32,000 bases of DNA from NCBI GenBank assembly GCA_023898645.1, contig CP060232.1, positions 120,001 through 152,000 of the forward strand. Reading direction: 5' to 3'. The position numbers were made by a program, and so were the translations under genes. Shown here one piece after another: positions 3,732-22,325 of this stretch. The stretch's first letter is position 1. Each line of letters opens with the position of its first letter. The notes beneath the pieces were generated by a model. The model did no database searches. It saw nothing but the letters and a program-made list of their open reading frames with translations, and was not told the DNA's origin. Origin of the DNA: Candidatus Saccharimonadota bacterium (GTDB lineage Bacteria; Patescibacteriota; Saccharimonadia; Saccharimonadales; Saccharimonadaceae).

Positions 3732-4400
3732 CTAACTCTGTAGTCGTAGTCCGCGGAAGCTTTCATCGCCTAGTCGGCGCTCTAGTTCTGCGCGGTTAAT
3801 GGTATAGCCCTTGCTGTCATAATCAATAATCTTTTTGCGTTTAAGACGACCCAGCTCTACTGTGGTTGTTTCTCGGGTGAGCCCCATTAGGCTACCGAGA
3901 GTCGTGTGAGTTAGCCGTAGGTTGACGCGATAGACGCCTGGCGCTGTCTGCTTGCCATAACGGAACATTAGGTAGTACATCATCAAAAGTAGCTTTTCTG
4001 CAGCGCGTGACTGCTCTAAAGCGGTCACCTGCATAATCAGGCCCGTATAACCAGTCGCGAAATAATCGAACATGTATTGTTTTACCTCGGGATTTTTTTC
4101 CATGAGGTCGAGCAACACGGGTTTTTCAACAGTGAGTACTTCGGAATCTTCCATGGCTTCATAGTAAAAAAGCGTGCTTGAGGTTTTGCCGAATAGCCAC
4201 GACGCAGGAAATACATCACCCTTGGTTCGGAAACCGGCGATTTGTTCCTCGCCAAAGTTACCAAGGCGATACACTTTGAAGACTCCAGAGAGTACGATAT
4301 AGACCTGCCTAGGAACCTCGCCCTGATAAATCAAAATAGAACGTTTCTTTACGGCACGTCTTGTCGATTGGGTTGGAAGAAGGTCTGCTATACTTTCCAC
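3732..4400 (-). CDS. Crp/Fnr-family transcriptional regulator (cNMP-binding domain + C-terminal HTH)
   Basis: 222 aa. Beta-roll region (ILIYQGEVPRQVYIVLSGVFKVYR...), then an HTH (LTHTTLGSLMGLTRETTTVELGRLKRKKII). Confidence 0.8.
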   Translation of the reverse strand: MESIADLLPTQSTRRAVKKRSILIYQGEVPRQVYIVLSGVFKVYRLGNFGEEQIAGFRTKGDVFPASWLFGKTSSTLFYYEAMEDSEVLTVEKPVLLDLMEKNPEVKQYMFDYFATGYTGLIMQVTALEQSRAAEKLLLMMYYLMFRYGKQTAPGVYRVNLRLTHTTLGSLMGLTRETTTVELGRLKRKKIIDYDSKGYTINRAELERRLGDESFRGLRLQS

Positions 4401-4540
4401 ACTCTTATACTACCACTTTCAGCGGCTCCTGAATATTGCAGTTGCAAAAGAGTAAGATAAATTACAGCTTCATATTCACTGAAAATGTACGATAGTACGT
4501 AGCCTGACGTGAGTCAGTGGAGAATTTAGAAGGAGACGCG

Positions 4541-4768
4541 ATGCGAGCAAATGCAGACCATGACACTGTCGATGATAAGATCCACCATTTTATGGCACGG
4601 AAATCTCCACTCAGGACGCTAAGTAAGATGGTTGCCGATCGCCTGGCAGTGGCTCCGATGAGCGCTGGACGTAGCGATGACGGTATGACATACGAAGTGG
4701 CAGAGTGGCATCAAAAACGGTCATCATATCCATTACGAAAAGTAATGCTGAAAGTAAAGACGCTCTAA
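4541..4768 (+). CDS. Small hypothetical protein (75 aa)
   Basis: I prefer the ATG at 4541 because AGGAG (4531-4535) lies 5 nt upstream. The tracked GTG at 4517 has no SD. The ORF ends inside a terminator hairpin. No recognisable domain. Confidence 0.5.
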   Translation: MRANADHDTVDDKIHHFMARKSPLRTLSKMVADRLAVAPMSAGRSDDGMTYEVAEWHQKRSSYPLRKVMLKVKTL

Positions 4769-5907: not shown

Positions 5908-7017
5908 ATGAGTAAAAACACGGGGATGATTTCTGGCGTTATCGCGGTAATCGTAGTAGCGGCTGGGTTACTAGTTTTGACGAACAATAAATCAGACACA
6001 GACACAAACAAGAGCAACACGGCAGTAACCGTAACGGGCGCTGGTTCTACGTTTGCCGCTCCGGTTTATGGCCAGCTAGGCAAGGAATACAAAGACAAGA
6101 AAAACGTTACTATCAACTATCAGTCGGTCGGTTCTGGTGCTGGTGTAGCGCAATTTATCGCGAACACGGTGAATTTCGGTGGCACTGATGTTGCTCTGAA
6201 AGATTCAGAAGTGAGTCAAGCAAAAGTACACGGTGACCCGCTTAATATACCAGTATCGTTTGGTGCAATTACCGTGTCTTATAACTTGCCGGGCGTGAAA
6301 AGTGGTCTGAAACTCGATGGCTCGACAGTTGCCGACATATACATGGGTAAGATTACTAAGTGGAACGATTCTGCGATAACTACGTTAAATCCAGGCGTAT
6401 CTCTACCTGACATGGCAATATCGCCAGTATATCGTTCAGATTCATCAGGTACTACGGCACAACTTACTACATTCCTCGCTGACGAGAGTTCTGATTGGAG
6501 CTCACAGATTGGTAGCGACAAAACAGTCAAGTGGCCGGCAGGTACTGGTTCGAAAGGTAATGACGGCGTTGCCGCTACGACGAGCCAAACAGTTGGAGCG
6601 CTTGGTTACGTCGAACTGGCATACGCATTGCAAAATAATTTCACCGTTGCTTCGGTCAAAAATAAAATGGGCGAATATGTTGCTCCGTCGCTCGATACTA
6701 CGTCGAAAGCTGGCGATAACTTACCGAATCTACCCGAAGATTTACGATTCACTTCGATTGATTCACCGGCTGAAGGTGCGTATCCGATTGCATCTCCAAC
6801 ATTCATCGTTACGTATCAGGATGTCTGCAAGGCTGGAGCTGTTAAAAACGCGAACGAGGCTGGGGCTTTGAAAGGCTGGCTGGGTTACATACTGGGCGAA
6901 GGCCAGGTAAGTATGAAAAAGTTAGAGTACGCGCCACTAGCACCAAGCTTGCTAAAAAAAGCTCAAGCAAAGGTTGATAGTATGACATGCAACGGTTCTG
7001 CGATTCAGGCAAGGTAG
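5908..7017 (+). CDS. pstS: Phosphate ABC transporter substrate-binding protein PstS
   Basis: TGAGSTFAAPVY and SGAG motifs are typical of PstS. N-terminal hydrophobic anchor with no lipobox Cys. First gene of pstSCAB. Confidence 0.9.
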   Translation: MSKNTGMISGVIAVIVVAAGLLVLTNNKSDTDTNKSNTAVTVTGAGSTFAAPVYGQLGKEYKDKKNVTINYQSVGSGAGVAQFIANTVNFGGTDVALKDSEVSQAKVHGDPLNIPVSFGAITVSYNLPGVKSGLKLDGSTVADIYMGKITKWNDSAITTLNPGVSLPDMAISPVYRSDSSGTTAQLTTFLADESSDWSSQIGSDKTVKWPAGTGSKGNDGVAATTSQTVGALGYVELAYALQNNFTVASVKNKMGEYVAPSLDTTSKAGDNLPNLPEDLRFTSIDSPAEGAYPIASPTFIVTYQDVCKAGAVKNANEAGALKGWLGYILGEGQVSMKKLEYAPLAPSLLKKAQAKVDSMTCNGSAIQAR

Positions 7018-7023
7018 CAGAAC

Positions 7024-8019
7024 GTGCCGGTTACCGAGTCAGTGTTTGTCGAACTTCGAACCCGTGTCGCATATGCGACACGGGTTTGGAGCGGCGATAT
7101 GTTAATTCGCCGTGCTTTGCAATTTGTGGCTGTGGCCATCTTGGTTGTAATCGGTTATTTTTTTGTCCAGTTGATAGCCGCGTCATTGCCCGTGTTTGCC
7201 AAGATGAGTGTCGTAGGGTTCGTCTTTGAAAATAACTGGGATGTAGCACACGCGGTGTTCGGCGCCCTGCCACTTGTTGTCGGAACGGTAATTACGTCGG
7301 CTATTGCGCTAGTTATAGGCGTTCCTGTTGCAGTTGCGGCAGCACTCTTTATCACCGAGTTAGCTCCGGTGCGGATGCGAGGCGTGCTGGCGCTGCTACT
7401 CGACTTGCTGGCTGCCATTCCGTCGGTTATTTACGGTTTATGGGGAGTTTTTATTTTGATTCCCACGTTAAAGCCGGCAGAAGAATGGGTGGCGGCAACA
7501 TTCCACTACGTGCCGTTTATAGGCGGAACGGTCATTGGTCCGAATTATTTCGTTGCAGGTTTGATACTCGCGATTATGATCGTACCAATTGTATCTGCGA
7601 TTTCACGTGAGGTATTAGCGACAGTGCCGTTAGCAGAAAAGGAAGCCGCTCTGGCACTTGGCGCCACTCGATGGGAGATGATTCAGCTAGCCGTACTGCC
7701 GCATGCAAGGCCTGGTATTGTCAGTGCTTCGATGCTTGGATTGGGCCGTGCGATTGGTGAAACAATCGCCGTCACCTTAGTCATCGGCAACGCTGCAGTC
7801 ATAGGAGGCAGTCTGTTTTCTCAGGGATATACTTTGGCTGCTGTGATTGCTAATGAATTTGGCGAGGCGGGTGTAGGCACCATACACGCGTCAGCATTGA
7901 TTGCTGCTGGGCTGATATTGTTTGTCATGACGCTCGTTATAAATGGCGTTGCGCGAGCCGTGGTGTTGCAACGTACACAAAAACACAGTGGCTCCATAGC
8001 AGACAGGGTGGTGGCATGA
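7024..8019 (+). CDS. pstC: Phosphate ABC transporter permease PstC
   Basis: Multi-TM protein with the EAA loop [16 protein letters not shown]. The GTG start at 7024 is uncertain; an in-frame ATG at 7099 is an alternative. Confidence 0.85.
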   Translation: MPVTESVFVELRTRVAYATRVWSGDMLIRRALQFVAVAILVVIGYFFVQLIAASLPVFAKMSVVGFVFENNWDVAHAVFGALPLVVGTVITSAIALVIGVPVAVAAALFITELAPVRMRGVLALLLDLLAAIPSVIYGLWGVFILIPTLKPAEEWVAATFHYVPFIGGTVIGPNYFVAGLILAIMIVPIVSAISREVLATVPLAEKEAALALGATRWEMIQLAVLPHARPGIVSASMLGLGRAIGETIAVTLVIGNAAVIGGSLFSQGYTLAAVIANEFGEAGVGTIHASALIAAGLILFVMTLVINGVARAVVLQRTQKHSGSIADRVVA

Positions 8020-20828: not shown

Positions 20829-20912
20829 TATTTAACTTATACCACTGCGAATCAGTCATCGCTAATTTGGCGGTAGATAATGCAGTGTTTTTTGACAGAA
20901 GAGGTGAGTTAC

Positions 20913-21326
20913 GTGACGCAAATCATTTCGGATGGCGCGTTGTTTCATCATGCGCACGACAGTACGGGCAACGGCTATAACGCTTTTGTAAAAAAAGCAA
21001 TACAAGCTCAGAACGACGGCAGTCTTGCTGTGCTGAAAAGCGAGGTTGCTCGGGTTGCAAGTGACATCAATTTCAATCTGATGCAGGGTGACCGGATCGA
21101 CAAACGGATTAGCATGGCAAAATATCTTGCTAAGCAAAAGCTGATAGTCCCGATTCCCAATCGCTATATCGAGAGTGCAAATACAGGTGTCGTCAATAAA
21201 TGGTCAGTACACGACGAGCTTAAGGCGTGGGGTTTTGAGCCGACAATGCTTAAAATCAACATCAAGAAGCGTCGACGGTTTAACACACGTGAATGTTACG
21301 TTGAAATAACATTCAAGAAAAAGTGA
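20913..21326 (+). CDS. Hypothetical protein (137 aa)
   Basis: I prefer the GTG at 20913, with GAGGTGA 5 nt upstream. The ATG at 20880 is the tracked alternative. No recognisable domain. Confidence 0.5.
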   Translation: MTQIISDGALFHHAHDSTGNGYNAFVKKAIQAQNDGSLAVLKSEVARVASDINFNLMQGDRIDKRISMAKYLAKQKLIVPIPNRYIESANTGVVNKWSVHDELKAWGFEPTMLKINIKKRRRFNTRECYVEITFKKK

Positions 21327-21409: not shown

Positions 21410-21973
21410 TTATTGGTGTTGCATCACCGTGTCGAGCCTGGGCAGGGCGATACCTGTGCCATAGATAAACGTGGTATTTCCGTAAGCGCGAAATCCGTAT
21501 GAGCCGAGCTCGATACGCCGGTATCTATCAACGATATCGTACGTATTTGGTCCGGTTTCTTCGACTTCCGTAACGATGAATTTTTTTAAAAACTCCCTAG
21601 CGTCGCGAATCATTTCTTTTAAATTTTCCTGTGTTGCATCGGTATTAATTAGTTCCAATTTCATGAAGTATGGGTGATGGAGTCTGTCGTATGATTTTTC
21701 TATGCGAAAGCACGGTGTTATACAGCAGGCCTTGGCTATGATTGCGCCACGACGCATTAATTCAATAAAACTTTGCTCTCCACTGCCCACGAGCTCCCCG
21801 TATTGAACCGATGTTCCGATTGCACCAACGGGCAGGGTGACGGCTAATGATTCGTGGCTCACGGCCCACGGCACTTCCATGTAGTGGTATCCGAGGTTTT
21901 CATAGTAATCGAGACCAGTGGTTAATTTTCGATAATCGATATGTCGTGGTTCGGTATAACTAACGCCTACCAT
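21410..21973 (-). CDS. Stand-alone mini class II aminoacyl-tRNA-synthetase-like catalytic core (187 aa)
   Basis: Motif-1-like GYHYMEVPWAV, motif 2 CFRIEKSYDRLHHPYFMKLEL, ELGSYGFR, motif 3 GTGIALPRLDTVM. GAGGAGGG lies 9 nt upstream of the ATG at 21973. Overlaps the upstream gene by 14 nt. Confidence 0.65.
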   Translation of the reverse strand: MVGVSYTEPRHIDYRKLTTGLDYYENLGYHYMEVPWAVSHESLAVTLPVGAIGTSVQYGELVGSGEQSFIELMRRGAIIAKACCITPCFRIEKSYDRLHHPYFMKLELINTDATQENLKEMIRDAREFLKKFIVTEVEETGPNTYDIVDRYRRIELGSYGFRAYGNTTFIYGTGIALPRLDTVMQHQ

Positions 21974-22292
21974 TTTCAAAAGCCCTCCTCGTAATTCGCG
22001 ACATTGTTATAAGATCTTCGATACTGTTTGATGGGTGATGTTTTTCCAGATAAAGCGCTATAGCGCCAATCAGATCGGACAGTTCGACAAGCGCCATGAT
22101 TTTCGCGTCTTGCCTTTCGGCGTCTTGCAGCTCGAGTACTTCCTCGAGAAGCTTGCTTGATTCTCCAATGACCCCTTTTGGTATTTCCATGAGATGATAG
22201 CCGGGTTTTTTAGCGGGTTTTTCGTACCTTGGCAATCCAGGTTCCTTTCTGTGCAATTTAGCGATCACATTATCAGCGTATCGTGATATCAT
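21960..22292 (-). CDS. HisE/MazG-like all-alpha NTP pyrophosphohydrolase-family protein
   Basis: GESSKLLEEVLELQDA ... MALVELSDLIGAIALYL is the E/D-rich helix pair typical of MazG/HisE. I prefer the ATG at 22292; the tracked start at 22295 is a TTG. Confidence 0.6.
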   Translation of the reverse strand: MISRYADNVIAKLHRKEPGLPRYEKPAKKPGYHLMEIPKGVIGESSKLLEEVLELQDAERQDAKIMALVELSDLIGAIALYLEKHHPSNSIEDLITMSRITRRAFENGRR

Positions 22293-22306
22293 CAAAGTAT
22301 CTAGTA

Positions 22307-22314
22307 AGTATAAT
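22307..22314. promoter_or_regulatory. Overlapping back-to-back -10 boxes in a 33-bp divergent intergenic region
   Basis: Plus-strand TATAAT (22309-22314) lies 11 nt before the ATG at 22326. Minus-strand TATACT (22312-22307) lies 14 nt before the ATG at 22292. Confidence 0.4.
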
Positions 22315-22325
22315 TTGACTCAAAT

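Follow-up and report, generated by a model that had tools for sequence, protein, structure and literature searches.

An open reading frame (ORF) for a 187-residue protein in a Candidatus Saccharimonadota genome raises the question of what a class II aminoacyl-tRNA synthetase (aaRS) catalytic core is for when no tRNA-binding module is attached to it. The ORF lies in a 32,000-nt stretch of contig CP060232.1 (assembly GCA_023898645.1, positions 120,001 to 152,000 of the forward strand), here called the window, from whose first letter positions are counted. Here we find that its product, hereafter the core, is a class II aaRS-type catalytic core, intact and free-standing, with its active-site residues conserved. 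What a sequence-only reading of this DNA had missed is that it is half of a module, two genes or one fused gene, whose other member is a small MazG/HisE-like protein, hereafter the partner. Because the core is minimal and keeps its ATP and amino-acid site, has no tRNA module, comes with an obligate partner, is restricted to host-dependent replicators and, in cellular genomes, stands in a context of nucleotide genes, we favour, at roughly an even chance, a two-subunit, tRNA-independent adenylate-forming enzyme in nucleotide-pool metabolism.

The ORF is read from the minus strand, a detail left out of the sequence-only reading, which was otherwise right about its existence and content: it runs from an ATG at 21973-21971 to a stop at 21412-21410 (translation P0001), and an alternative in-frame TTG start at 21979, two codons upstream, would give 189 aa. 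All five class II signatures that had been quoted are present in the translation, and in the order given: GYHYMEVPWAV (residues 28-38), GELVGSGEQSF (59-69), CFRIEKSYDRLHHPYFMKLEL (88-108), ELGSYGFR (155-162) and GTGIALPRLDTVM (172-184). Motif 1 is represented by P35, motif 2 by F89-R90-x-E92 ... F103 and motif 3 by G172-x-G174 ... R179. In an alignment of 63 family members (41-66% identity), residues P35, R90, F103, E107, E155, R162, G172-T173-G174 and R179 are invariant; motif 2 and its second strand read C88-F-R90-x-E92 and then F103-x-K105-x-E107, and further invariant blocks occur at E155-x-G-S-Y-x-x-R162 and Y171-G-T-G-x-A-x-P-R179 (motif 3). The three motifs stand in order, with P35, R90, E92, F103, G172, G174 and R179 invariant or nearly so across the 63 members, and the ATP-binding arginines of motifs 2 and 3 (R90 and R179) are in place. 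Motif 2 (CFRxE) lines up with motif 2 of AspRS and SerRS. At low confidence (hhalign probability 44%), the invariant S64-G-E66-Q67 (SGEQSF) lines up with Q(S/A)PQ(L/Q)(Y/F) of the window's AspRS and of human AspRS; no lysine aligns with K198 of AspRS, I70 standing there, and R162 occupies the position of the arginine that binds the Asp/Asn side chain.

AlphaFold2, run on the core family alignment, gave a confident model (predicted local distance difference test, pLDDT, 95.8; predicted TM-score, pTM, 0.91) with the topology helix, short strands, helix, two long motif 2 strands, helix, four strands and a short C-terminal helix. The antiparallel beta-sheet flanked by helices that marks the class II superfamily is present in this model and recovered by Foldseek: of 627 PDB matches at E<=1e-3, every one of the best 50 is the catalytic domain of SerRS or of a PylRS-derived protein (best E 9e-10, query TM ~0.65-0.72, identity 16-20%), and the BFVD matches are family members and giant-virus aaRS. 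Only ~13 residues precede the motif 1 helix and only 8 follow the motif 3 arginine (in the model, residue 14 opens the first helix and residue 185 closes the last), so that no space is left in the chain for a tRNA-binding module. No tRNA- or anticodon-binding module was found in the model, and Pfam and NCBIfam scans find nothing beyond the core domain; the N-terminal OB-fold anticodon-binding domain of class IIb enzymes is likewise absent by Pfam and in the model. The prediction of a class II core without such modules is thus upheld. Both proteins of the module are acidic (median isoelectric points 5.3 and 5.5).

How small this is depends on the comparison. PylSc, the smallest solved class II catalytic domain (~255-275 aa), charges tRNA(Pyl), whereas the core lacks its extra helices and tRNA-binding elements. 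As had also been proposed, the known tRNA-independent paralogues (AsnA, EpmA, HisZ and the amino-acid:carrier-protein ligases) are all longer, the core being ~100-150 residues shorter. To call it close to the smallest conceivable class II core was nevertheless an overstatement, since class II urzymes of ~81 aa, engineered or spontaneous, have been reported active in vitro, including in tRNA acylation (PMC11602164). Urzymes such as HisCA and GlyCA resemble the core in being minimal and without tRNA-recognition domains, but they are engineered (one is a spontaneous ORF), span ~81-140 aa and lack motif 3, whereas the core is natural and widespread, keeps motifs 1-3 and has a partner of its own (PMC11602164).

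The family is large and holds to this length. A first homology search with the core returned 330 relatives, nearly all of 177-214 aa, and an exhaustive profile search of 1.84 billion representative proteins returned 1,592 clusters (50% identity), 1,431 of them at E<1e-10, with the best 150 of the 1,592 overwhelmingly 175-200 aa. This bears on the possibility that the ORF is the pseudogene or decayed remnant of a longer aaRS, which the sequence-only reading had named as an outcome that would overturn it, or that it arose by chance. Nothing but a sub-threshold Pfam score speaks for either, and ~1,600 clusters of the same ~180-200 aa with invariant catalytic residues rule it out; the confident fold, a strong Shine-Dalgarno sequence with translational coupling to the partner, and an operon or fusion kept across phages, bacteria and archaea point the same way, leaving it a vanishingly small probability.

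The PHROG collection lists the family, still uncharacterised, as phrog_4806, a profile of 190 positions that the core covers from 4 to 182 (E 1e-32). It occurs in 278 sequenced phage genomes, where it is annotated 'histidyl tRNA synthetase', 'seryl-tRNA synthetase' or hypothetical; PHROG names derive from remote homology rather than experiment, and the synthetase label is likely a mis-annotation. One Caulobacter phage copy was once labelled 'RNA polymerase alpha subunit C-terminal domain protein' in GenBank. Phage carriers include phi92-like and phAPEC8-like coliphages (112 Escherichia records), T4-like Acinetobacter phages (61), Caulobacter, Brevundimonas and Microcystis phages, and jumbo phages. 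In one-genome-per-species genomes we found 33 cellular loci, most of which belong to Saccharibacteria, to further phyla of the candidate phyla radiation (CPR; Woesebacteria, WWE3, Magasanikbacteria, Spechtbacterales) or to DPANN archaea (Woesearchaeota, Nanoarchaeota); the closest relatives of the window's core, the contig of which measures 1.13 Mb, are in Saccharibacteria metagenome-assembled genomes. The collection scans relied on exact peptide patterns, and these taxonomic counts are therefore lower bounds. A full-text literature search on aaRS-like, phage, MazG, PRA-PH, CPR/DPANN and urzyme themes turned up no account of the family, nor of a MazG/HisE-like subunit paired with it, and neither a jumbo-phage survey (PMC7824862) nor the dZ metaGPA preprint nor the 5-hydroxycytosine paper mentions the family.

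The second feature that defines the system is the constancy of its partner. Across 128 core-domain matches in 123 fetched loci (several near-identical contigs included), the partner gene is adjacent upstream in 56 and adjacent downstream in 23, is fused to the C-terminus of the core in 16, and in 26 is encoded on the core's strand at a distance of over 100 nt (mostly no farther than ~0.2-1.2 kb); it is thus adjacent, nearby or fused in about 95% of loci, and went undetected in seven matches, several of them at contig ends. The natural fusions (e.g. P0124, P0150, P0156, P0226, P0238) come mostly from DPANN archaea and some CPR bacteria, and as Rosetta-stone evidence they indicate that the two proteins act together. 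In the window, the partner's stop codon (21960-21962) lies 14 nt within the core gene, and the Shine-Dalgarno-like GAGGAGG of the core falls within the partner gene, at its 3' end, which suggests that the two are translationally coupled. Variants of the arrangement were also seen. Caulobacter phages CcrPW and CcrColossus (L010, with the core gene at 3743-4597, L055 and L056) encode a core lengthened to 284 aa in total, by ~85 aa at the N-terminus and by an internal insertion, and a partner that is still a separate upstream gene, while one viral contig carries two core paralogues in tandem (L054:5983-6570 and 6583-7233).

The longest ORF for the partner (21960-22295) would encode 111 aa. An in-frame TTG at 22235 follows AAAGGAA and would give 91 aa; as homologues have 84-92 aa, this TTG is probably the real start. 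It also leaves 90 bp for a divergent promoter region, as against 30 bp with the longest ORF. Public gene calls give 110 or 76 aa, with a start that is probably mis-called. The conserved domain spans ~83 aa, from PGYH to NGRR, and matches phrog_6408 at E 9e-35 (positions 1-82 of 83). We found 318 homologues at 55-87% identity, mostly 65-87% among the 120 listed. In one alignment (A2), K48, E51, E52, E55, D58, E71 and D74 are invariant; in a second, more diverse alignment of 44 sequences (A3), the same K, E, E, E ... E, D are invariant and D58 is nearly so. Residues E52-x-x-E55 and E71-x-x-D74 form an EXXE-16-EXXD arrangement, within the EXXE-(12-28)-EXXD pattern of the MazG/HisE all-alpha nucleoside triphosphate (NTP) pyrophosphohydrolases. 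Among curated families the best likeness is to HisE/PRA-PH: PF01503 (PRA-PH) weakly matches 17 of 29 partner members (best E 0.0046, under the cut-off), and the ten best matches in a PDB sequence search include MazG-like 1vmg (E 0.08) and three HisE structures (2a7w, 1yvw and 1yxb, E 0.13-0.58), with the motifs in register. Since no score is individually significant, and the comparison with the window's own MazG family is not either (see below), membership of the MazG/HisE superfamily is probable rather than proven.

Could the core instead belong to one of the known tRNA-independent paralogues? Its match to Pfam PF00152 (E 2.8e-3, 17.2 bits) is under the cut-off of 25, a gathering threshold that a few relatives just reach, and the archaeal AsnA model NF005055 gives E 0.015 and 14.4 bits against a cut-off of 389. 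A profile of the 63 core sequences run against all PDB sequences returned 15 matches (best E 0.015), 14 of them class II aaRS (SerRS, AspRS, PylRS, AsnRS) with motif 2 properly aligned. Weak hidden Markov model matches of family members are spread over PheS, AsnS, archaeal AsnA, EpmA, AspS, PylS and SerS, and with Foldseek preferring PylRS and SerRS, the class IIb (Asp/Asn/Lys) affinity that had been suggested finds no clear support. The core would work like the tRNA-independent paralogues, yet by these profile scores it belongs to none of those that were scored.

AsnA and archaeal AS-AR share with the core a tRNA-independent class II fold without an anticodon-binding domain; AsnA, and by expectation the core, would adenylate a carboxylate that is then attacked by a small nucleophile, with an arginine at E-x-x-x-x-x-x-R (E155/R162). 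A minimal AsnA-type amino-acid amidoligase (e.g. an aspartate-ammonia ligase), with the MazG-like neighbour incidental, could be imagined from the weak matches of 14 of the 63 members to NF005055, from R162 at the position of the Asp/Asn side-chain-binding arginine, and from the lack of most amino-acid biosynthesis in CPR bacteria and DPANN archaea. The ELGSYGFR segment, too, resembles ELSSMGIR of E. coli AsnA. We consider an AsnA-type ligase very unlikely all the same: the score of 14 bits is far under the cut-off, models for PheS, AsnS and EpmA match as often or more, the core has ~185 aa as against ~295-330 in AsnA, fusions and near-universal adjacency make the partner, which AsnA lacks, an integral subunit, and it is hard to see why ~280 sequenced phages should need to synthesize asparagine. 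EpmA (PoxA/GenX) is likewise a truncated class IIb-type core with a non-tRNA acceptor, and 11 of the 63 members weakly match its model TIGR00462, but EpmA has ~325 aa and acts on the protein EF-P whereas the core's partner is nucleotide-enzyme-like; EF-P, EpmB and EpmC are absent from the recurrent neighbours of the pair.

There is a precedent of another kind in HisZ, a HisRS paralogue that regulates HisG; GCN2 and the accessory subunit of Pol gamma also reuse class II folds non-catalytically. As in the HisZ-HisG complex, an aaRS-like protein is here in obligate association with an enzyme for an ATP-derived nucleotide, and the core might by analogy be a non-catalytic subunit that senses ATP or an amino acid and switches a MazG/HisE-like pyrophosphohydrolase. 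Obligate pairing or fusion with an enzyme subunit would suit this, as would the stronger conservation of the partner (mostly 65-87% identity, against 41-70% for the core, in the listed homologue sets). It is, however, an unlikely solution, for each residue that catalysis requires, beyond those for binding, is invariant over a very divergent family (R90 and E92 of motif 2, R179 of motif 3 and the Mg/ribose-binding E155), whereas HisZ has lost ATP-site residues. A further difference from HisZ-HisG is that the partner is of pyrophosphohydrolase rather than phosphoribosyltransferase type. HisG did not appear among the recurrent neighbour clusters, although no search was aimed at it, and the neighbourhoods inspected showed no histidine-biosynthesis genes.

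For the favoured two-subunit adenylate-forming enzyme, we infer catalysis, substrate, acceptor and physiological role as follows. The core would bind ATP in the bent class II mode, through R90 and E92, stacking on F103, and with E155 and R179, and would adenylate an alpha-amino-acid-like substrate at its carboxylate, with the alpha-amine held by Q67 (of SGEQ) and E107, and with R162 placed where AspRS, AsnRS and AsnA hold their side-chain-binding arginine. The acyl-adenylate would be resolved by a small-molecule nucleophile instead of tRNA. The partner, with its full acidic metal motif, would either convert an NTP to the monophosphate and pyrophosphate or hold the co-substrate or acceptor nucleotide, and the module as a whole would serve (deoxy)nucleotide pools in host-dependent replicators, namely large phages, CPR bacteria and DPANN archaea. 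A doubtful variant, to which we assign a low probability, has the pair use a mononucleotide made or held by the partner as the acceptor, yielding an aminoacyl- or amido-nucleotide by 'proto-aminoacylation' or nucleotide modification; in some lineages, a radical-SAM or HxH...H metalloenzyme (below) would then elaborate the product. Among the closest known arrangements are MazZ-PurZ and gp56-gp42, in which a small all-alpha NTP pyrophosphohydrolase-type protein likewise accompanies an ATP-dependent enzyme in phage nucleotide metabolism; they differ in that the second enzyme of our pair has a class II aaRS fold, unprecedented there, and that the pair also occurs in CPR and DPANN genomes.

The features of the locus, and two further genes or domains that recur beside the pair elsewhere, are collected in the table.

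Table. Features of the window around the core-partner pair, and accessory genes or domains at other loci (locus handle before the colon).
Feature	Position	Strand	Basis or remarks
Core gene	21410..21973	-	ORF and translation, family conservation, AlphaFold2, Foldseek, phrog_4806
Partner gene, MazG/HisE-like small subunit	21960..22235	-	phrog_6408, homologues, acidic motif, weak PRA-PH and PDB matches
Shine-Dalgarno-like GAGGAGG	21984..21990	-	Read from sequence; 10 nt before core ATG
Intergenic region, presumed shared promoter/operator	22236..22325	.	Between divergent pair operon and wHTH-Nudix gene; same layout in other Saccharibacteria loci
Winged helix-turn-helix (wHTH)-Nudix gene, 223 aa	22326..22997	+	Pfam NUDIX E 2.7e-11; DUF7347/HTH_20 weak; adjoins pair in 9 loci
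Canonical MazG, 111 aa	23028..23363	+	Pfam MazG E 1.7e-9; phrog_229; adjoins pair in 7 loci
Radical-SAM gene	L018:6791-7474, L020, L025, L027:6758-7441, L031, L043, L033:5290-5967, L038		
Third domain, adjacent to pair	L006:5567-6127, L015, L016, L097		
Third domain, fused	L036:3965-4762, L066:5192-6001, L081:5175-6002		

In cellular genomes the surroundings of the pair speak of nucleotides. In Saccharibacteria it sits in an island with a divergent wHTH-Nudix gene, a synteny kept in nine loci, and the canonical MazG; one lineage adds a nucleoside deoxyribosyltransferase, an ITPase/XTPase and a second Nudix gene, and a 383-392-aa protein with a uridine-kinase-like (Udk-like) domain is often encoded directly downstream. 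The wHTH-Nudix protein has the wHTH at its N-terminus and the Nudix domain at its C-terminus, the reverse of the NrtR domain order, and its Nudix box appears by eye to be partly degenerate (REAAEKLNV versus REUXEEXGU), which would fit a ligand-sensing regulator. On the other side of the pair, a 148-aa ORF (20880-21326, plus strand) convergent with the core has no Pfam, NCBIfam or PHROG match, and its relatives among the fetched loci are on near-identical contigs only.

Outside Saccharibacteria, the divergent neighbour in eight CPR loci is nrdR. In the 260-bp stretch upstream of nrdR, which lies between that gene and the pair, 12-mers resembling the NrdR-box core (ACTATATATAGT, <=2 mismatches) are ~44-fold enriched over the remainder of the loci (7 in 2,080 bp versus 7 in 92,117 bp), and such sites could regulate nrdR, the pair or both. 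They were seen in the shared promoter DNA of L006, L129, L131, L036 and L038. A scan for the canonical 16-bp NrdR box (<=3 mismatches) gave nothing convincing, and none of the 12-mers lies near the pair in the window (22236..22325). In DPANN archaea, the gene directly upstream of the fused one encodes a kinase of the AAA_28 (NadR) type, which in some cases carries a CYTH domain as well. A small radical-SAM gene overlaps the fused core-partner gene in eight loci (DPANN and two CPR phyla). Its product, of ~221-256 aa, has a CNxNCxFCY cluster motif in most cases and weak similarity to MoaA, viperin and NrdG2, and the gene order is swapped in WWE3.

A third accessory domain of ~185 aa, phrog_4784-like, occurs in eight loci of CPR bacteria and phages, either next to the pair or as a fusion with the partner, and is absent from the window. 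Its invariants include FGLGFIQ.K, H..H.HRY.F.S and a later H; the HxH...H element recalls, by eye, the 3-His pattern of cupins and cysteine- (thiol-) dioxygenases, and neither Pfam nor NCBIfam nor a PDB sequence search gave a match to it.

Phage loci show a comparable vocabulary of neighbours: NrdA, NrdB, deoxynucleoside monophosphate kinase, dCMP deaminase, MazG, thioredoxin and glutaredoxin recur, and phi92-like phages have NrdD/NrdG near the pair. In Escherichia phage PaulScherrer/Bas60 (L124, 5753-10344), the order is partner, core, a YqeY-like gene, a 316-aa protein of no assigned function, NrdD and NrdG. In one metagenomic phage, a PurZ-like adenylosuccinate synthetase gene lies directly downstream of the pair; a link to PurZ and the Z base was rejected as a general explanation, such adjacency having been seen at that locus only. 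Counted over 121 loci, a gene recognisably of nucleotide metabolism lies within 6 kb in 37.

Several observations weigh against a nucleotide-pool enzyme of two subunits. For core and partner alike, all sequence-level matches with curated families stay under the cut-offs, the alignment of core to AspRS has an HHalign probability of just 44%, and the partner's comparison with the window's MazG family was not significant, either against a single sequence (hhalign E 0.32) or alignment to alignment (E 0.05, with low diversity on both sides). An NTP pyrophosphatase releases pyrophosphate, which is inhibitory to adenylate formation, so that the logic of coupling the two activities is not obvious. Nucleotide-metabolism neighbours are found in only about 30% of loci, and those in phages may reflect a general clustering of early genes. 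Lastly, the pair lies within tRNA arrays in five viral loci (L045, L050, L051, L072 and L078), and a YqeY-like gene, potentially for a tRNA-binding protein, directly follows the core in phi92-like coliphages such as PaulScherrer (PF09424, 33.8 bits versus a cut-off of 27) and in L102, its only occurrences.

These last two points lead to the idea of a split, minimalist tRNA-charging or tRNA-repair enzyme that would make acceptor-end contacts only, with tRNA binding supplied in trans; the complete class II active site would serve it equally well, and urzymes of ~81 aa have been reported to acylate tRNA in vitro (PMC11602164). We nonetheless regard it as improbable. The universal partner is acidic, with an EXXE..EXXD metal motif, and not an RNA-binding module, YqeY is confined to two lineages, a tRNA gene within 6 kb is lacking in about 40 of the 60 loci scanned, and in cellular loci the tRNAs look incidental; the synteny in cells is with nucleotide metabolism rather than translation, and a standard AspRS is already encoded in the window. 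Because the core is nearly always paired or fused with a nucleotide-pyrophosphatase-like partner, an enzyme of nucleotide metabolism is more likely than a charger of tRNA. We note separately that the YqeY-like gene of L124 is annotated 'putative aspartyl/glutamyl-tRNA synthetase', that two viral loci carry tRNAs with a CUA anticodon (amber-suppressor, 'Pyl'; L067:211-286 and L102:12076-12151) and that oddly shaped tRNA calls occur at L036:650-722 and L081:411-486, which may be a sign that the phages concerned recode stop codons.

If the favoured reading of a two-subunit, tRNA-independent adenylate-forming enzyme is true, the family would provide a natural, abundant and strongly selected class II core of ~180 residues, and with it a native test system to set against urzymes that are mostly engineered. 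The combination of a class II adenylating core with a MazG/HisE-type pyrophosphohydrolase would be a new pairing of subunits, for which we found no described counterpart, and the 'histidyl/seryl-tRNA synthetase' label in hundreds of phage genomes, then almost certainly wrong, would need correcting. The restriction of the module to phages, CPR bacteria and DPANN archaea, together with its link to NrdR, nucleoside kinases and ribonucleotide reductase, would then point to an unrecognised step in the nucleotide-pool metabolism of these host-dependent replicators.

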